Of a stretch of DNA of 64,000 nucleotides, positions 57,199 through 64,000 are shown piece by piece (the first letter of the stretch is position 1; each line of letters opens with the position of its first letter). The position numbers and the translations under genes are program-made. The notes beneath the pieces are model-generated. The model ran no database searches, was not told where the DNA came from, and saw only the letters and a program-made list of their open reading frames with translations. Source of the DNA: Candidatus Eiseniibacteriota bacterium (GTDB lineage: Bacteria; Eisenbacteria; RBG-16-71-46; JABDJR01); contig CAWANH010000029.1 in the NCBI GenBank assembly GCA_963783375.1, positions 868,981 through 932,980 of the forward strand. Reading direction: 5' to 3'.

Positions 57199-59805
57199 CT
57201 AGTCGAGCACGATCTCCGAGGCCGGCTCCCGCAGATTGTAGCGGGAACTCATGACCGCGCCGTAGGCCCCGGCGTTCTCGATCAGGAGAACGTCGCCGGG
57301 TTCCGGATCGGGGAGCGATCGGTCGCGGCCGAGGACGTCCCCCGATTCGCAGATCGGACCCACGATCTGCCAGTAGCGCCGGCACGGCTCGTCCAGCCGG
57401 CTCAGGTTGTGAATGGTGTGCCAGGCGCCGTAGAGGGCGGGGCGAAGGAGGGAGTTCATCCCGGTGGTGAGCCCCGCGTAGTGGACGCCTTCCTTGGTCC
57501 GGACCTGGGTGACCGGGGCGATCAGCACCCCCCCTTCGCTGACCAGGAACCGGCCCGGCTCCAGGCGAAGATCGAGCCCGGGAACCCGCGCGCGAAGCTC
57601 GGCCAGACGCGCTTCGAGCAGGGCGAGGTCGAGGGGAGCCTGCCCTGGGCGCTCGGGGACCCCCAACCCGCCGCCCAGATCGAGCCAGCGCGCCTCGGGA
57701 AATAGCTCGCGGATCCCGGCCAGGGCTTCCCCGGTTCTGAGCCAGACGTCGGGATCGAAGATCCCGCTCCCGACGTGGGCGTGAAGGCCGGTGACCCTCG
57801 CCCCCGCCCGCGACGCGGCCTCGACCAGCGCGTCCAGATCCCCGAGGGGCTGCCCGAACTTGGCCCGCGCGCCCGCGGTCCGCACCGTGGGATGGTGGCC
57901 GAAGCCGCGACCCGGATCGAGCCGGACCGCCACATCGCGGCCACGGAAGAGCTCGGGGTTGGCTTCGAATGCACCGGGACCGTCCACCGTGATCTCGGCG
58001 CCGACGGCCGCCGCCGCCGTGTACTCCTCCGGGGGGCAGAAATTCGGAGTGAAGAGCACCGGACACCCGGATCCCGCGACGGCCCGCGCCCGCTCCACCT
58101 CGGCCGCGGACACGCACTCCAGCCCGTAGCCCGCCCCGGCGAGAACGGCGAGAACGTCGGGGTGGGAGTTGGCCTTCATCGCATAGTAGAACCGGTTGAT
58201 CGAGGGGAGGTCGCGCCGGAGCGCTTCGGCTCGGGCCCGGATCGCGCCGAGGTCGTAGACGTAGTGCGCGCGGCCGTCCGCCGCAATCTTCAGGAGTTCC
58301 TCCCGCCGGCCCCGCCACCACGCCGGGGCGACCTGCTCGCCCGGGCGGCCGCCCCGGAGCATCTCCCAGCTGGGACCGAGACGCGGATCCTCGTCGTGGG
58401 CGGAAAAGAGGCGCGCGTGGAGCCGGGCGACCAGGGGCTGGGCGTCCGCCTCGTCCACCACGAAAGAGACGTTCAGATCCTCGGCGGAGACGCTCACCAG
58501 GTGCACCGGGTGCTCCTGGAATGCCTCGAAGGCGGGGCCGAGCTCGTGGAGGACGGCGCGAATCCGCCGGCCGACGATCGACACCACCGCCGCGGGATGG
58601 ACGATCCGGACCGTCCCCAGCTCCTCGAGGCGCCGCACCAGCTCCCGGAACGCCCGTCCCTCCATCCCCCCCGGAACCGTGTCCAGGGTGACGCTCACCG
58701 CGAACTCCGAGGTGGTCACGAGGTCGACCGAGATCCCCAGATCCCGGAACGGCTCGAAGACCCGCGCCAGATAGCCGGGGGTTCCCCACATGGCCAGGGC
58801 GGAGAGATTCACCAGGGTCACCGAGGTGCGGCAGGTCACCGCGGTCACCGCAGGATGGGCGCCGTCGTCGGCCTCGATCCGGGTGCCTTCGATCTCCGGA
58901 GACTGGACCCGGGCCACCCGCACCGGGATCCGGTGGCGCGCCGCCGGAACCAGGCAGCGGGGATGAAGGACCTTCGCCCCCAGGCTGGCCAGTTCCTGGG
59001 CTTCCCGGTAGCCGATCCGGCGGATCAACCGCGCGGCGGGAACGCGGCTCGGGTCGGCGGTGAACATGCCGTGGACATCGGTCCAGATCTCGAGGAACTC
59101 GGCCCCCAGACGCGCGGCGAAGAGGGCGGCCGAGGTGTCGCTTCCCCCCCGACCCAGTAGGCACGTCTCCCCCTGATCGGTGCGCGCGAGAAACCCCTGG
59201 GTGATGACCACCCGCGCACCGCCGGCCACGCGCTCCATCGGGCCGGGGTCGCGCTCGGCGGGCACGTCGGCATCCAGGTAGCGCGCCTCGTCGGATTCCA
59301 TGGACCGGGGCGCGCTCACCATGATCTCGGTGGCGTCGAGCCAGGCCGCGTTCACCCCCCGGGCGGCCAGAAGCGCCGCCCCCAACCGGCTCGACGCCCG
59401 CTCCCCCATGGCCATCACGCGGGCGGTGAGACGCGGGGGCGTCTCCCCGGTCAAACGAATCCCGTCCAGGAGCCGGGCAAGCTCATCCCACAGAGCCGCC
59501 AGTTCGGGAACGTCGGATTCGAGGCCGCCTGCCGACCCCAACGCCCGGTGAAGCTCGCGAAGCTCATCAGGCGCGGTGACAGTCTTTCCCTGCCGGGCCT
59601 CGGCCACCGCGCGCTCCAGACGGTCGGTGACGGTGGCCAGAGCCGACACCACCGCGCAGACCCGGTGTTCGGGGGTGAGTGCCCGAACCCGTTCGGCGAT
59701 CCGGTCCCATCCGGTCGCCGTAGCCACCGAGGTGCCGCCGTACTTGAGCACGACCCAGGTGGAACCCTTGGACAGGTTGTCGGACATGGCGCTGTGATCC
59801 GTCAT
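57199..59805 (-). CDS. bifunctional aspartate kinase / diaminopimelate decarboxylase (LysC-LysA fusion)
   Basis: Residues 1-~450 are aspartokinase (VVLKYGGTSVATATGWDRIAERV... ACT domains). Residues ~455-868 are a PLP-dependent Orn/DAP decarboxylase (RAHYVYDLGAIRARAEALRRDLPSINRFYYAMKANSHPDVL...GGGLGVPE...ESGDVLG). The reading frame is continuous across 868 aa. Confidence 0.88.
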   Translation of the reverse strand: MTDHSAMSDNLSKGSTWVVLKYGGTSVATATGWDRIAERVRALTPEHRVCAVVSALATVTDRLERAVAEARQGKTVTAPDELRELHRALGSAGGLESDVPELAALWDELARLLDGIRLTGETPPRLTARVMAMGERASSRLGAALLAARGVNAAWLDATEIMVSAPRSMESDEARYLDADVPAERDPGPMERVAGGARVVITQGFLARTDQGETCLLGRGGSDTSAALFAARLGAEFLEIWTDVHGMFTADPSRVPAARLIRRIGYREAQELASLGAKVLHPRCLVPAARHRIPVRVARVQSPEIEGTRIEADDGAHPAVTAVTCRTSVTLVNLSALAMWGTPGYLARVFEPFRDLGISVDLVTTSEFAVSVTLDTVPGGMEGRAFRELVRRLEELGTVRIVHPAAVVSIVGRRIRAVLHELGPAFEAFQEHPVHLVSVSAEDLNVSFVVDEADAQPLVARLHARLFSAHDEDPRLGPSWEMLRGGRPGEQVAPAWWRGRREELLKIAADGRAHYVYDLGAIRARAEALRRDLPSINRFYYAMKANSHPDVLAVLAGAGYGLECVSAAEVERARAVAGSGCPVLFTPNFCPPEEYTAAAAVGAEITVDGPGAFEANPELFRGRDVAVRLDPGRGFGHHPTVRTAGARAKFGQPLGDLDALVEAASRAGARVTGLHAHVGSGIFDPDVWLRTGEALAGIRELFPEARWLDLGGGLGVPERPGQAPLDLALLEARLAELRARVPGLDLRLEPGRFLVSEGGVLIAPVTQVRTKEGVHYAGLTTGMNSLLRPALYGAWHTIHNLSRLDEPCRRYWQIVGPICESGDVLGRDRSLPDPEPGDVLLIENAGAYGAVMSSRYNLREPASEIVLD

Positions 59806-59987
59806 GCAGGGGATGCCTCCTCGAACCGCTGACTATAACCCAGGAGCCTGCGGCGTCGAGGGGACGGCGTGGTTTCGATCGGGGGCGCGGCGCGAGGGCG
59901 CGGAAGATGCGCGGGGGCGGCGGGAAACGACAGGCGGAACCGCCCGGTGAGCGGTCCCGCCCGTTCATGCGGATCGGCACGGAGAGA

Positions 59988-60422
59988 TCAGATGCCGGTG
60001 ATGACCGGCGCGTCCGCGCTCGCGTACATGTCGGGAACGGTCATCACCAGGGTGATCCCGGAAAGCTTGCCCTTCCCGGTTGCGGTGATCACCAGTGGGT
60101 TCGAGTCGGCGGGTTGGCCGCCGCCCGAGGAGATCTGATAGGTGAAGTTCTCGGAATCGGCCATGTCCATCAGGCCGAACTCCCCGGCCACCGGCGGCCA
60201 GGTGGGGGTTCCATTCAATGCCGCGTGTTCCTGGGAGAACGCCTTCGCCGCGGTGATCATCTCCCCCATGCGGGACTGGGCCTCGGTGACCCGGGTCCGC
60301 CGTACGTAGCTCCCGTAGATCGGAACCGCGATACCGGCCAGAACCCCCACCACGACGGTCACCACCATGAGCTCGATGATGGTGAAGCCAGCCTTGGAGC
60401 GGAGCGGATGGTGTCGTTGCAT
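59988..60422 (-). CDS. type IV pilin / prepilin-type N-terminal cleavage-methylation domain protein
   Basis: ...KAGFTIIELMVVTVVVGVLAGIAVPIY has the G|FTxxE prepilin peptidase site. The protein is 144 aa. An AAGGAGG RBS lies 7 nt upstream. Confidence 0.8.
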   Translation of the reverse strand: MQRHHPLRSKAGFTIIELMVVTVVVGVLAGIAVPIYGSYVRRTRVTEAQSRMGEMITAAKAFSQEHAALNGTPTWPPVAGEFGLMDMADSENFTYQISSGGGQPADSNPLVITATGKGKLSGITLVMTVPDMYASADAPVITGI

Positions 60423-60669
60423 CGAAAGCCTCCTTGAAGAGGACCGTTCCCATCGCCTGGTGGACCGACCTTCGGCGGCGCTTCGCCCGGGAACCTGGGC
60501 GATCTCTCACACTCAGGGGGGATTCGCCCCAGAACATCCGAGGACCGTGGTGCCGCCCCGCAGCGGACACTCCCGCCGAATTGGCTGTCGCTTGGCCCGT
60601 TGGCGTCGGGTGGACCCCCACGGGCCCCGCCGCCCGCACCCCGGACCGGCACCGATGGACTCCAGAAGA

Positions 60670-60685
60670 TGCAAAGCCCGGACCA
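60670..60685 (-). promoter_or_regulatory. candidate sigma-54 (-24/-12) promoter upstream of the pilin gene: TGGTCC-N5-TTGCA
   Basis: On the minus strand, TGGTCCGGGCTTTGCA has GG and GC at the consensus spacing of TGGCAC-N5-TTGCA. It is about 250 nt upstream of the pilin ATG. Pilin genes are sigma-54-dependent in several lineages. Confidence 0.25.
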
Positions 60686-60770
60686 ACCGGGTCGGATTCG
60701 GACTCCAAGGCGGCGGGCCGGGCCACATCGGAGTCGGGCCGCGCCAGAGGAGGAGATAGGGAGGAAAGAA

Positions 60771-60848
60771 TGGTGTCCCCAACGGGATTTGAACCCGTGT
60801 CGCCAGCGTGAAAGGCTGGTGTCCTAGACCAGACTAGACGATGGGGAC
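60771..60848 (-). tRNA. tRNA-Glu (anticodon UUC), CCA encoded
   Basis: The reverse complement GTCCCCATCGTCTAGTCTGGTCTAGGACACCAGCCTTTCACGCTGGCGACACGGGTTCAAATCCCGTTGGGGACACCA folds with a 7-bp acceptor stem, a D stem GUCU/GGAC, an anticodon stem CCAGC/GCUGG with loop CUUUCAC, and a T arm ACGGG-UUCAAAU-CCCGU. Confidence 0.85.
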
Positions 60849-60910
60849 CCGAATCGAGGCCGCTCCGACGTCCAAGCCGCGTCGGAGGCGCAGGCAAAAA
60901 CCGGTCGCAG

Positions 60911-60940
60911 AAGGTACCAGGATACAAAGTCGAGGGTCAA
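60911..60940 (-). promoter_or_regulatory. candidate promoter for tRNA-Glu: TTGACC-N18-TGG-TACCTT
   Basis: The -35 TTGACC (60940..60935) and TGG+TACCTT (60919..60911) lie about 62 nt upstream of the mature tRNA 5' end. Confidence 0.3.
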
Positions 60941-61043
60941 CCGGCGCCCACGACCCGCGGGCGCCTCCGCGTCCCTGCCGTCCCCGCATCACAATATCCA
61001 ACAGGCTTGCGCTGTGTGCGAGAAACGCCGGGGAGAACCGCTG

Positions 61044-61074
61044 AAAAAAAAAGGCCGGGGGGTGATCCCCGGCC
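61044..61074 (-). terminator. canonical rho-independent terminator (8-bp GC stem GGCCGGGG/CCCCGGCC + U9)
   Basis: The minus-strand sequence is GGCCGGGGAUCACCCCCCGGCC followed by UUUUUUUUU. The plus strand has A9 at 61044..61052 preceding the hairpin at 61053..61074. Confidence 0.65.
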
Positions 61075-61250
61075 CCGCCTCAAGCTGGAGCCGGGCGTAG
61101 GCACCCGGCTGGAGGGCAACCAGCCTGAAGACTGATTCGTGCTCTAGGGCACGACCTCTTGACAAGGGTAACCGGCCAGTCCCACGAGGGATGAGCAAGG
61201 GCCGCGTCTGAGCGCAGCCAGCTTACACAGGGACACAGCCAAGCCACCGA
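61044..61250 (-). ncRNA. candidate small RNA (~200 nt) with its own extended -10 promoter and intrinsic terminator; identity unknown
   Basis: The unit is bounded by promoter TGGTATAAT (61264..61256) and the terminator at 61074..61044. It has lower GC than flanking DNA. The only ATG-initiated ORF is 34 codons with no RBS. No SRP RNA, RNase P, tmRNA or tRNA signatures were recognised. Confidence 0.35.
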
Positions 61251-61255
61251 GCATC

Positions 61256-61264
61256 ATTATACCA
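61256..61264 (-). promoter_or_regulatory. extended -10 promoter TGGTATAAT (perfect -10 hexamer with TGn)
   Basis: The minus strand reads ...TTTTGGGTGACGGCGGGGGGGGGCTGG-TATAAT-GATGCTCGG. The -35 is weak (GGGTGA). A G9 homopolymer lies in the spacer. Confidence 0.4.
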
Positions 61265-61296
61265 GCCCCCCCCCCGCCGTCACCCAAAATTTCCGC

Positions 61297-61908
61297 TTAC
61301 TGGAGACGCCGGACAAGCCCAACCACTTTTCCAACAATTTTCAGATCTTTCGGATTCCTCACCACGATGGGGTCCATGGTCTGGTTGGCCGGAAGAAGCC
61401 GAACCCTATCTGCTTTCTTTTCAAAGCGTTTGACGGTCGCCTCGTCCTCGATCATCGCGACCACGATGTCCCCGTTGACTGCCTGCTCCTGGGGCCGGAC
61501 CACGATGTAGTCTCCGGGGCAGATGTGTTCCTCGATCATGCTCTCACCCTGGACCTCCAGCAGGAAGTTCCCGTCTCCGCGGAGGAGGGAGGCGTCCAGG
61601 GTGAGCCGCTCGGCGATGTTCTCCACCGCGAGAAGGGGCGCCCCGGCGGCAATCCTCCCCACCAGGGGGACGCTCTGGCCGGAGGCGCTGGGCCGACTTC
61701 CGATGATCTCGATTCCCCTGGACCGGTCGCGGGTCCGGGCGATGAACCCCTTCCGCTCGAGGGCCAGGAGATGGTCCGAGGCGGCCCGGGTGCTCCTCAT
61801 CCCAAACTCGGAGCAGATCTCGCGGAGGGTGGGGGGGTACCCGTGCTCCTCCAGATGGCGGGCCAGGTAGTCGAAAATCTCCTGCTGTCGGGCGGTCAGG
61901 CGTTGCAT
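61297..61908 (-). CDS. lexA: LexA repressor (SOS response)
   Basis: Start at 61908 gives MQRLTARQQEIFDYLARHLEEHGYPPTLREICSEFGMRSTRAASDHLLALERKGFI... (wHTH). The C-terminal S24 peptidase has Ser (GESM) and Lys (VKRFEK). The protein is 203 aa with a GGAGG RBS. Confidence 0.93.
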   Translation of the reverse strand: MQRLTARQQEIFDYLARHLEEHGYPPTLREICSEFGMRSTRAASDHLLALERKGFIARTRDRSRGIEIIGSRPSASGQSVPLVGRIAAGAPLLAVENIAERLTLDASLLRGDGNFLLEVQGESMIEEHICPGDYIVVRPQEQAVNGDIVVAMIEDEATVKRFEKKADRVRLLPANQTMDPIVVRNPKDLKIVGKVVGLVRRLQ

Positions 61909-62414
61909 GGGGTGCCTCCCAGAAGGGTCCGGGTCACGAGGTCGGGGGAGAACAGGTCCCCTTGGCGATCCCGCCACCTCGCCCTCTCCTCGACCGAATC
62001 TAATGCACGACCGGCCGCGGGGCCAGCATTCTTGCTCGCTTTGGCCATTGATCCCCGCACCGCGTCCTTCACGTCCGTCTGGGCCGACACGCCCGGGGAG
62101 GCGGCCGCCGGTGGAGCGGGAGCGGCTTTCGGGACCCGCCCGACGGCCAGGGCCAGGAGAAAGCTCCTGGGCCAGAGATCTCCGGCCTCGGTGGCCACCG
62201 CGGGTCCCAGGGCGACCGCCCGGCGAAGAAGTCCGAGCCGTCGCTCCTGAACGAACTCGCTCCACTCGTCGGCGAACCGCCGCAGACGCTCCGCGCGAAT
62301 CCGGCGGGGCACGCTGCGACATGCCTTCTGGAGCTCCCCCACCAGGACCCGCCGTAGCGCGTACGCCTCCTGACGGGATCGGACTTCAGACCATTCCCTG
62401 TTCACCGCGATCAT
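61896..62414 (-). CDS. hypothetical protein encoded immediately upstream of lexA, overlapping its start by 13 nt
   Basis: Start at 62414 gives MIAVNREWSEVRSRQEAYALRRVLVGELQKACRSVPRRIRAERLRRFADEWSEFVQERRLGLLRRAVALGPAVATEAGDLWPRSFLLALAVGRV.... The protein-like N-terminal ~100 aa is followed by an Ala/Pro-rich tail. No recognisable domain was found. The overlapping plus-strand ORF 61907..62608 looks like compositional junk. Confidence 0.45.
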   Translation of the reverse strand: MIAVNREWSEVRSRQEAYALRRVLVGELQKACRSVPRRIRAERLRRFADEWSEFVQERRLGLLRRAVALGPAVATEAGDLWPRSFLLALAVGRVPKAAPAPPAAASPGVSAQTDVKDAVRGSMAKASKNAGPAAGRALDSVEERARWRDRQGDLFSPDLVTRTLLGGTPCNA

Positions 62415-62734
62415 GGTCGCCCCCTTTGACGGCGGGCCGCTCGCCCGCCCATCCGCGTTGGTTGACGGGTTGTCCGGGCCGCGCCCCGCCGCTGCGGCGC
62501 CGGCCCGGAACCCCGTCGTTTGCCTGCCGCGCCCCGTGGGCGCGGTCTCAAGAACAGCCCGGTCAAGGTCGGCTTCGCCCGCCTCACCCGACTTTCCCCG
62601 TCTTTTAGAGAGGACAGACACCTTGCCGGGCTCAATCCGTTTGCTGTGCATATGTATACTACTCGCATGAAGCCTCGGCAAGCAAAAAAGGGAGGGGACG
62701 GCAAAAAGTTTCGAACTCCCGGTCAAACAACCGT

Positions 62735-64000
62735 TTAAGGGGCGTCGAGGAAGGCTTCCAGACGCATGGAGAGCCGCTCCCATTCGGAAATCGCCCCCCC
62801 GATCTCCGCCTCCAGCTCCTTCAGCCGCCGGTGGAGCCGGCCCAGCTTCTCGGGATCGACCGCGGTCTCGGGTTCGGCCATGGCCAGGATGAGGTCCTCC
62901 TTCTCCGCCTCGAGTTCCTCGATCCGGGTCTCGGCGTCGGCCACCCGCCGGCGGAGCTTCTCCTCATCCCGCTTCCGCCGCCGCTGCTCCTCGTAGCTCC
63001 TCCGCCGCGCCTGCTTCCCGCCTGCCACGCCTTCGGCGCCGTCTCCACTCCGTTCGGCCGGGGGGGAGGGCTCCGGCGCCGGCCCCGGAGCGCCCCGCGA
63101 CTTCTCCGAGGCCTCGGCGCCGGTCACGCCGCGCCGCGAGTGAGCGTAGGCCGAGTACCCACCTTCCCAGAGCCGGCTCCCCACCGCGCGAAGCTCCAGC
63201 ACGTGGTCCACCACCCGATCCAGGAAGTAACGGTCGTGGCTCACCACCAGCACGGTGCCGGCATAGATTTCCAGCGCGGCTTCGAACACCTCCCGGGATT
63301 CGATGTCCAGGTGATTGGTGGGCTCATCGAGGACCAGGAAGTTGGCGCCGTGGCGCACCAGCTTGGCCAGGGCCACCCGGCTCTTCTCGCCGCCCGAAAG
63401 CTGGTTCAACGCCTTGAAGACATCGTCGCCCCGGAAGAGGAAGCCCCCCAGAAACGACCGGATCTCGTTCTCGGTGACCTGGGGGGTGACCGACCAGACC
63501 TCATCGAGAACGGATTGGGGGCCGCGGATCCTGGTCTGCTCCTGCTCGTAGTAGCCGATCTCCACCCCCGGCCCGATCCGGAGCGTCCCCTCGGTCTGGC
63601 CCTCCTCCCCCACCAGGATCCGCACCAGGGTGCTCTTCCCCACCCCGTTGGGACCGATGAGGCCGATCTTCTGGCCGCGGATGACCGAGAACGACACGTC
63701 GGAGAAGATGCGGGCATCGCCGTAGCGCTTGGAGAGCTTCTTGGCCTCGGCCACGATCTTGGCGCTCCGCGACGGCTCGGGGAGCTTCATGTGGATGCTC
63801 GAGGCCGGCCATTCCGGGGCATCGATGCGTTCCAGCTTCTCCAGCGCCTTCCGCCGGGACTGGGCCTGCTTGGTCTTCTGGCCGGCTAGGTTCCGGCGGA
63901 TGAAGTCCTCCTGGCGGAGGATCTCGACCCGCTGGAGCTCGTAGCGCTTGGCCTGCTCCTCGAGGCGCCGTTCGCGCTCGACCAGGAAGTCGTCGTAGTT
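62735..64000 (-). CDS. ABC-F family ATPase (EttA/Uup/YheS-like), C-terminal ~420 aa; the N-terminal ABC domain lies beyond the window end
   Basis: The second ABC domain is present (GLIGPNGVGKSTL, LSGGEKSRVALAKL, LVLDEPTNHLD) plus a C-terminal coiled coil. Reading upstream of track ORF 62735..63790 in the same frame continues without a stop to the window edge. That sequence is the inter-domain linker (...YDDFLVERERRLEEQAKRYELQRVEILRQEDFIRRNLAGQKTKQAQSRRKALEKLERIDAPE). Confidence 0.85.
   Translation of the reverse strand, partial: NYDDFLVERERRLEEQAKRYELQRVEILRQEDFIRRNLAGQKTKQAQSRRKALEKLERIDAPEWPASSIHMKLPEPSRSAKIVAEAKKLSKRYGDARIFSDVSFSVIRGQKIGLIGPNGVGKSTLVRILVGEEGQTEGTLRIGPGVEIGYYEQEQTRIRGPQSVLDEVWSVTPQVTENEIRSFLGGFLFRGDDVFKALNQLSGGEKSRVALAKLVRHGANFLVLDEPTNHLDIESREVFEAALEIYAGTVLVVSHDRYFLDRVVDHVLELRAVGSRLWEGGYSAYAHSRRGVTGAEASEKSRGAPGPAPEPSPPAERSGDGAEGVAGGKQARRRSYEEQRRRKRDEEKLRRRVADAETRIEELEAEKEDLILAMAEPETAVDPEKLGRLHRRLKELEAEIGGAISEWERLSMRLEAFLDAP

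Follow-up and report, generated by a model that had tools for sequence, protein, structure and literature searches.

The DNA analyzed here is a 64,000-nucleotide (nt) stretch from Candidatus Eisenbacteria (hereafter, the window), and the element under study is a short promoter-to-terminator unit located between lexA, which encodes the SOS repressor, and a tRNA-Glu(UUC) gene. An earlier note on this DNA had described the unit as a candidate small RNA (sRNA) gene in that setting, and the setting was borne out, with both flanking genes located on the minus strand. A conserved open reading frame (ORF) upstream of lexA, termed ORF-X, belongs to the same operon as lexA. The unit and its flanking genes are laid out as follows.

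61908..61297, minus strand: lexA, 203 amino acids (aa), directly upstream of the sRNA gene
61283..61278, minus strand: -35 hexamer of the sRNA promoter, GTGACG
61264..61256, minus strand: extended -10 element of the sRNA promoter, TGgTATAAT, separated from the -35 hexamer by a 16-nt spacer
61249..61043, minus strand: predicted sRNA transcript, approximately 207 nt, ending in the U-run
61076..61044, minus strand: intrinsic terminator GGGGCCGGGG-AUCACC-CCCCGGCCUU plus U-run, conserved, and the only terminator available to the ORF-X-lexA operon
60848..60771, minus strand: tRNA-Glu(UUC), downstream of the sRNA gene and on the same strand as lexA

The extended -10 element and the terminator were found exactly at the coordinates that the earlier note had given. 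The promoter scored 10/12 plus the TG extension and contains a near-consensus extended -10 element, and a 6-kb scan returned two promoter-like sites against 0.4 expected. The start of the sRNA was placed 7 nt (±2) past the -10 element, that is, near 61249. The terminator hairpin, GGCCGGGG-AUCACC-CCCCGGCC, occupies 61074..61053 and reaches 10 bp with the flanking GG/UU (61076..61051); it is followed by a run of nine U residues (61052..61044). A terminator-like pattern was by itself not rarer than chance in this G+C-rich DNA (one found, 3.4 expected in shuffled sequences), and the terminator is therefore accepted as real because it is strong and because 25 loci conserve it. It was the sole terminator-like site within 58000..64000. 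The G+C content of the element, described earlier as lower than that of its surroundings, was 0.624 compared with 0.697 for the window, a modest dip given that lexA itself has a G+C content of 0.637.

Related loci were gathered in two independent ways, using LexA homologues of graded identity and a context-free scan of metagenome contigs with the exact pattern GTCTTCNNNCTGGTTGCCCTCCAG. The unit was kept from promoter to terminator in 25 Candidatus Eisenbacteria loci, which hold 21 distinct RNAs of 161-207 nt. The element was located directly 3' of lexA in all of these loci (25/25), and the LexA proteins encoded there were 65-100% identical to that of the window. Matches from the pattern scan lay behind lexA in 12 of 12 cases, though the scan ignored context. 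A tRNA-Glu(UUC) gene followed 150-450 nt downstream of the element wherever the contig reached that far, the exception being L107, in which no tRNA-Glu was visible in the 280 nt read downstream of the element. A covariance model built on the 3' module of the RNA (model R1) gave a single 122-bit match in the window and detected exactly one copy per locus.

The promoter was conserved along with the rest of the unit. All 23 pattern-bearing loci examined carried [G/T]TGAC-N16/17-TGnTATA[A/C]T, with the [G/T]TGAC hexamer at the same spacing in 23/23 and with unrelated spacer sequences; L105, which was examined later, had a degenerate -10 element, TATACC, without the TG. In every structural variant, the first helix of the RNA started 1-5 nt past the predicted start site. 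These results point to a putative independent transcription start, the position of which is predicted from the promoter. In the 13-90 nt between the lexA stop codon and the sRNA promoter, no hairpin followed by a U-run was detected at the sequence level in the window or its relatives, implying that lexA transcripts must also read into the element and would end at the sRNA terminator. The element might thus be a cis-acting 3' untranslated region (UTR) and terminator module of the ORF-X-lexA mRNA, acting in stability or termination, with no independent transcript that matters. Every lexA transcript would contain it, because no terminator intervenes, and it is always directly 3' of lexA. However, all 23 pattern-bearing loci examined hold an extended -10 element at a constant distance from the first helix despite unrelated spacers, which would be pointless for a pure 3' UTR, and a multi-hairpin domain of 160-200 nt with an exposed invariant bulge far exceeds what termination needs. 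We consider this explanation quite improbable. The proposal that the region is merely the 3' UTR of lexA, which the earlier note had also raised, thus held as far as the missing terminator is concerned and failed with respect to the promoter.

RNAalifold and per-sequence folding showed that the RNA consists of four consecutive hairpins, namely a variable P1, a small P2, a long P3, and the terminator. The parts upstream of the terminator are listed below.

61248..61167, minus strand: P1, the long 5' hairpin and variable domain, with compensatory pairs detected by RNAalifold among seven group-A sequences
61198..61186, minus strand: UUGCUCAUCCCUC, C-rich motif of the P1 3' arm, conserved, for the most part unpaired, and present in group A only
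61154..61137, minus strand: P2, the small hairpin GUCGUGC-loop-GCACGA, found in every variant, with pairs in which both bases have changed
61132..61077, minus strand: P3, the long hairpin, in which a 9-nt bulge separates the outer stem (11-12 bp) from the inner hairpin (8-9 bp here, 8-11 bp in the comparative analysis)
61119..61111, minus strand: UUGCCCUCC, the invariant 9-nt bulge of P3, inside the invariant 15-mer CUGGUUGCCCUCCAG

The window RNA had a minimum free energy of -104.9 kcal/mol (z = -3.7 relative to dinucleotide shuffles). In P3, 97.6-97.9% of the alignment cells were paired and six or seven pairs showed double changes, compared with no more than 54% pairing in slid controls. The 17-sequence alignment of the 3' module had 97.6% of its cells paired and six pairs changed on both sides, and its covariation (0.155, against 0.128 in column shuffles) was not reached by any of 500 shuffles; sliding the partners by 1-3 columns reduced pairing to 33-53%. 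Similar values were obtained for the 11 loci that were found via LexA alone (97.9% paired, seven pairs, covariation 0.220 against 0.169, 0/500). This set avoids the bias of the search pattern, and its alignment was fitted to the model, which favors the structure somewhat. In L107, the most distant member, the inner hairpin was fully compensated (AGAGGGG...CCCCUCU for AGCCGGG...CCCGGCU), as were the changes in the outer stem. The bulge UUGCCCUCC had an unpaired probability of at least 0.92 in 17 of 19 RNAs.

The 5' domain behaved differently among clades. P1 was replaced by unrelated hairpins in three subclades, and the group-A form is the ancestral one. The core GCUCAUCCCUC of the C-rich motif UUGCUCAUCCCUC was invariant in every locus that kept the group-A 5' domain, with the first two bases of the motif varying in some, and the mean unpaired probability of the motif was 0.53-0.95. 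A 26-nt tandem duplication (AACGCAAGGACGGTTCTAGCAAGCTT twice) was also observed in the 5' domain of the sRNAs of L097 (7243..7437) and L102 (1856..2050), giving RNAs of 195 nt instead of 169 nt.

Two ORFs present in the window copy raise the question of a small protein, encoded either by a leaderless ATG ORF of 34-37 codons or by a 55-codon GTG ORF. The first had been described as a 34-codon ORF starting at about +2 and as a possible leaderless micro-protein, and neither description was supported: the ORF comprises 36-37 codons, and its ATGs (61257..61255 and 61254..61252) lie just 1-4 nt past the -10 hexamer. Because this is upstream of the start near 61249, and of any plausible start, the small ORF would not be readable from a transcript of the sRNA promoter. 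The ATG was missing from L001, L002, and others, and the 19 RNAs first collected had no ORF in common with respect to start codon, frame, and stop. In the loops, differences in length (1-6 nt, not multiples of three) broke every frame, and the 5' domain was exchanged wholesale in some clades. No Shine-Dalgarno (SD) sequence preceded any of the ORFs, and long random ORFs are expected at 70% G+C. A small protein is therefore hardly credible as the product of this element.

A known RNA was sought using Rfam 15, which at gathering score returned only tRNA. In a permissive scan (E ≤ 10, 60850..61400), there was no match to 6S, signal recognition particle (SRP) RNA, RNase P RNA, or transfer-messenger RNA (tmRNA), and weak, terminator-driven matches alone were obtained: SorY (RF02651, 25.4 bits), mmgR/suhB (RF00519, 24.4 bits), and SorX (RF02784, 22.4 bits). 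These alignments rest on the inner hairpin and the terminator, and the corresponding gathering thresholds are 111, 41, and 46.6 bits. ARAGORN likewise found the tRNA-Glu and no tmRNA. The earlier statement that SRP, RNase P, and tmRNA signatures are lacking thus agrees with the scan, and its suggestion of a 6S-like RNA does not: the rod of 6S (RF00013), with a closing stem and a central bubble, was not found, since the ends of the RNA do not pair and the fold is a row of hairpins. A divergent housekeeping RNA, or a riboswitch or attenuator leader for tRNA-Glu, would suit the length of approximately 200 nt, which is within the 6S range, and the position upstream of a tRNA gene. In contrast, a universal RNA would not be missing at this locus in sister Eisenbacteria, as this element is. 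As for a leader, the tRNA-Glu lies at a variable distance of 150-450 nt and still has a promoter-like TTGACC...TATACT where lineages lack the element, and the unconserved 5' domain argues against an aptamer. We regard these explanations as very improbable. With the unit conserved in 25 loci, a covariation-supported fold, and no conserved ORF, the description as a candidate small RNA stands, and by our informal estimate the element is very probably a structured non-coding RNA gene.

The pattern of conservation within the RNA was uneven. In the 11-locus set, three blocks never changed: the 15-mer CUGGUUGCCCUCCAG, which comprises the bulge together with its flanks; UCCAG; and GGCCGGGGAUCACCCCCCGGCC, the terminator core of 22 nt. 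The terminator core, with the loop AUCACC included, was invariant in 21 of 21 distinct RNAs. Because the 15-mer was invariant in loci found via LexA alone, the search pattern cannot explain its invariance, and because the three blocks are fixed while neighboring stems vary, selection acts on the bulge and, unexpectedly, on the terminator hairpin with its loop at the level of sequence and not of structure alone. One explanation is that the RNA binds a protein, as a sponge, decoy, or component of a ribonucleoprotein, and that the 15-mer and the terminator hairpin are protein recognition sites. The 15-nt and 22-nt blocks are without any change while the stems beside them covary freely, and a terminator needs structure only, yet both its stem and its loop are fixed. 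Moreover, GGGGAUCACCCCCC in the terminator matches GGAUCACCUCC, which we take to be the universal 3' tail of 16S rRNA, at 10 of 11 positions, a comparison made after seeing the data. In contrast, each RNA holds only one or two copies of the motif, compared with the many copies in known sponges, CsrB for example; the loci show no linked partner gene; and pairing sRNAs are typically built in this way, with an unpaired C-rich motif ahead of a terminator. A protein-binding RNA is, in our view, unlikely, and we favor base pairing through the bulge, for which the targets considered below provide further evidence on either side.

The distribution of the element was then compared with the phylogeny of LexA. 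The two best genome matches of the window LexA were Eisenbacteria metagenome-assembled genomes (MAGs), with 78-80% identity, and all others were at or below 50%, which places the window in Candidatus Eisenbacteria. The element was missing from three Eisenbacteria loci with more distant LexA proteins (58-65%), L087, L089, and L090; in L087 and L089, lexA was followed by tRNA-Glu after approximately 120 nt with no RNA gene between them. Model R1 found no second copy in the 64-kb window and no copy at all in these three loci or in lexA loci of other phyla. In a neighbor-joining tree of LexA, the RNA-bearing loci formed one clade, sister to L087 and L089. Because the RNA-bearing loci form one clade and the sisters are without the element, the RNA gene seems to have originated between lexA and tRNA-Glu in the spacer of a single lineage, the ancestral order apparently being lexA followed directly by tRNA-Glu. 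The three loci also differed upstream of lexA, where a DnaE2-like polymerase gene with PHP and DNA_pol3_alpha domains (L087, 24..2468; L089, 154..2463; L090, 1..2504) stands in place of an ABC-F gene and ORF-X.

ORF-X and its upstream region were examined as part of the same transcription unit. The relevant features of the window are listed below.

62669..62649, minus strand: operator-like palindrome CATGCGAGTAGTATACATATG, over the -10 element of the ORF-X-lexA promoter
62425..62415, minus strand: candidate target site AGGGGGCGACC, comprising the ORF-X SD sequence and spacer, directly upstream of the ATG at 62414..62412
62414..61896, minus strand: ORF-X, 172 aa, first cistron, overlapping the lexA start by 13 nt

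Across loci, ORF-X is a conserved ORF of 95-173 aa whose end overlaps or abuts the start of lexA, indicating that it is the first cistron of the lexA operon. It belongs to no Pfam family, and only five homologues were found by word search. The AlphaFold2 model showed a confident helical N-terminal domain of approximately 95 aa with the remainder disordered, and a Foldseek search of the model against PDB returned no match. The C-terminus carries a conserved RQGDLF (Qx[DE]LF), presumably resembling a β-clamp-binding motif. The operator-like palindrome was unique in the window (0 expected), and its counterparts in the relatives are cleaner, with 15 bp in the form ATGyATA-G-TATrCAT or ATGTTTA-G-TAAACAT. 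It probably serves this clade as the LexA box. No copy of it was present in the promoter of the sRNA itself. Transcription continuing from the operon promoter into the element would still link a portion of the RNA pool to SOS by way of this predicted operator.

The 5' leader of the ORF-X-lexA operon (approximately 230 nt) was also found to contain an invariant block of approximately 22 nt, AGACGGGGGAAGUCGGGUGAGG, flanked by GCCCGG...CCGGGC, in 17 of 17 loci (the window, at about 62640..62570 on the minus strand, and L001, L002, L081, L083, L085, L088, L091, L092, L097-L099, L101, L103-L105, and L107). The block is read in different frames in different clades, indicating that it is conserved at the nucleotide level. 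RNAalifold gave only a weak consensus for it, and there was no Rfam match at E ≤ 5. The block may be a second cis-regulatory element of the locus. On the other side of the sRNA gene, the next gene past tRNA-Glu (59988..60422, minus strand) encodes a type IV pilin-like protein that has an N_methyl motif (E 3e-6) and weakly matches the DNA-uptake-sequence receptor ComP; a similar N_methyl gene follows in L088.

To search for targets, the 800 nt upstream of lexA were scanned in 15 loci for complementarity to the 15-mer, the bulge UUGCCCUCC being the putative seed. The best or a near-best complementary site was repeatedly located at the ribosome-binding site of ORF-X. The strong sites are as follows.

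L001, ORF-X site: GGAGGGCAACCgAUG, exact complement of the seed (11-13 nt)
L103, ORF-X site: UGGAGGGCAACCAUG, exact complement of the seed (11-13 nt)
L088, ORF-X site: CUGGAGGGCAACCCUUG, exact complement of the seed (11-13 nt)
L081, ORF-X site: GGAGGGCGACCAUG, pairing kept via G·U wobbles
Window, ORF-X site: AGGGGGCGACCAUG, pairing kept via G·U wobbles

The site in L088 accounts for a second GGTTGCCCTCCAG on the other strand of that locus, which was first thought to be due to chance. RNAduplex gave -21.1 kcal/mol for the window site, a value that 6 of 1000 dinucleotide shuffles attained, and -25.5 to -27.3 kcal/mol for L081, L001, L103, and L088, which no shuffle attained (0/1000). In comparison, the lexA ribosome-binding sites of the same loci gave -10.8 to -17.3 kcal/mol. 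The lexA ribosome-binding site was itself considered as a target and rejected, since it showed generic SD complementarity only, no better than -17.3 kcal/mol, and was not conserved. A strong SD sequence alone does not explain the ORF-X site, because the part beyond GGAGG (GCAACC) is not favored by pairing with the anti-SD sequence of 16S rRNA. An exact complement of 11-13 nt at this ribosome-binding site is also hard to explain if the RNA only binds a protein. In the LexA tree, the strong sites are spread over three separate subclades, a distribution suggesting, from the sequences compared, that the putative ORF-X target site is ancestral.

Several results weigh against pairing with ribosome-binding sites in general and with that of ORF-X in particular. 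The ORF-X complementarity was significant in just 5 of 17 loci, marginal in three (L002, L105, and L107), and absent in nine (L083, L085, L091, and all six group-B loci, which have a different 5' domain). Because the site is lost in many loci and the seed is kept, ORF-X cannot explain the invariance of the seed, and this persistence also suits a protein-recognition site. The five strong sites occur in lineages related by descent and were thus inherited rather than acquired independently. In the G+C-rich window, the seed pairs at approximately 45 sites no less well than at the ORF-X site of the window, and about four sites equal the exact complements in this respect. The fixed terminator hairpin and its loop AUCACC are unexplained by pure base pairing, which hints at a sequence-specific partner. 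In addition, the target search covered the 64 kb of the window, and both the independent transcript, with its abundance, and the start site are predictions. Other searches were negative: none of the strongest duplex sites in the window coincided with a real gene start, the rest of the window was not enriched in exact or near-exact complements of either C-rich motif, the second C-rich motif (UUGCUCAUCCCUC) paired with the ORF-X leader no better than shuffles did, and the full-length sRNA showed no compensating complementarity to the ORF-X ribosome-binding site in lineages without the seed site.

Taking both sides together, we lean, with slightly more confidence than doubt, toward an undescribed sRNA family of one Candidatus Eisenbacteria clade whose seed would pair with ribosome-binding sites, including that of ORF-X in several lineages. 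The sRNA would be transcribed from its own sigma-70-type extended -10 promoter and would end at a terminator common with the ORF-X-lexA operon. The bulge UUGCCCUCC would act as an anti-SD-like seed on G-rich ribosome-binding sites, blocking translation initiation, and in several lineages, including that of the window, one target may be the ribosome-binding site of ORF-X. Pairing there would lower the synthesis of ORF-X and, because ORF-X and lexA overlap or abut, that of LexA as well, and the outcome would be post-transcriptional feedback on the operon of the SOS repressor. Because the seed is invariant also where the ORF-X site is lacking, additional trans targets or a sequence-specific partner must maintain it, and ORF-X is a plausible but lineage-limited target. 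The parts of this reading differ in strength. By informal estimate, it is somewhat probable that the RNA acts as a base-pairing sRNA of the anti-SD type, and the identification of a ribosome-binding site of the lexA operon as one of its targets is tentative. The stronger version, in which the RNA is the feedback arm of the SOS repressor operon, made both alone and as the tail of the ORF-X-lexA mRNA and throttling LexA via ORF-X, is possible but doubtful. More speculatively, the terminator hairpin resembling the 3' tail of 16S rRNA might recruit a factor that binds the 16S 3' end.

A full-text literature search returned no regulatory RNA, sRNAs included, described for Candidatus Eisenbacteria and no sRNA encoded behind lexA. 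The RNA family is previously undescribed, of a familiar sRNA kind, and restricted to one clade of Candidatus Eisenbacteria. To our knowledge, candidate phyla represented only by MAGs are largely blank for non-coding RNA, and the combination of a promoter, a covarying fold, an exposed invariant seed, and strict linkage to lexA in 25 loci makes this a clean case. The family is suited to RNA family databases and to the annotation of these MAGs. It also provides an example of the birth of an RNA gene, with a new gene in the lexA-tRNA-Glu spacer of one clade. If the feedback reading is true, the level of the master SOS repressor would be set by an sRNA within its own transcript.

Several known systems resemble parts of this arrangement. 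OppZ and CarZ of Vibrio cholerae are autoregulatory sRNAs from operon 3' ends, which depend on Hfq and arise solely through RNase E processing (PMC7398697). Like them, the Eisenbacteria RNA comes from the 3' end of an operon, has a terminator common with the operon, and is predicted to pair with the translation-initiation region of its own operon. Unlike them, it keeps its own promoter, shows no sequence or structure similarity to them, and has predicted own-operon pairing in only part of the clade. The ORF-X complementarity in five lineages suggests feedback of the OppZ/CarZ type, and if this pairing is true, sRNA autoregulation from the operon 3' end, as in the Vibrio opp and car operons, would extend to the SOS master regulator and to a distant phylum. 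DinR of Klebsiella derives from the dinI 3' UTR, is controlled by LexA via the dinI promoter, targets ftsZ, and acts by occluding a ribosome-binding site (PMC10907235). In both cases, the sRNA sequence forms the 3' end of a transcript from an SOS gene, and occupation of a ribosome-binding site, known for DinR, is proposed in the present case. In contrast to DinR, the host transcript here is that of lexA, the RNA has its own promoter without the operator-like palindrome, the candidate target is ORF-X, and the sequences are unrelated.

In the α-r14/NfeR1 sRNAs of Alphaproteobacteria, ultraconserved anti-SD motifs occupy the unpaired regions that separate variable stems (PMC10746234). The RNA described here likewise holds an ultraconserved and unpaired C/U-rich motif (…GCCCUCC…) among stems that are free to vary and ends in an intrinsic terminator, a likeness in the way of working and not in family membership. 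It differs from α-r14 in having one invariant UUGCCCUCC in a bulge, with CAUCCCUC in group A only, instead of CCUCCUCCC in three hairpin loops. It also differs from α-r14, mmgR/suhB, SorX, and SorY in phylum and genomic context, and its Rfam scores are far below thresholds of 41-111 bits. Finally, type I 3'-end sRNAs such as DapZ and MicL (MicL, PMC4102768) have their own promoter near the end of the upstream gene and a terminator common with it. The promoter of the Eisenbacteria RNA lies 13-90 nt past the lexA stop codon, whereas those of DapZ and MicL are inside the coding sequence; as in these sRNAs, the terminator is common with the upstream gene, here at the sequence level.

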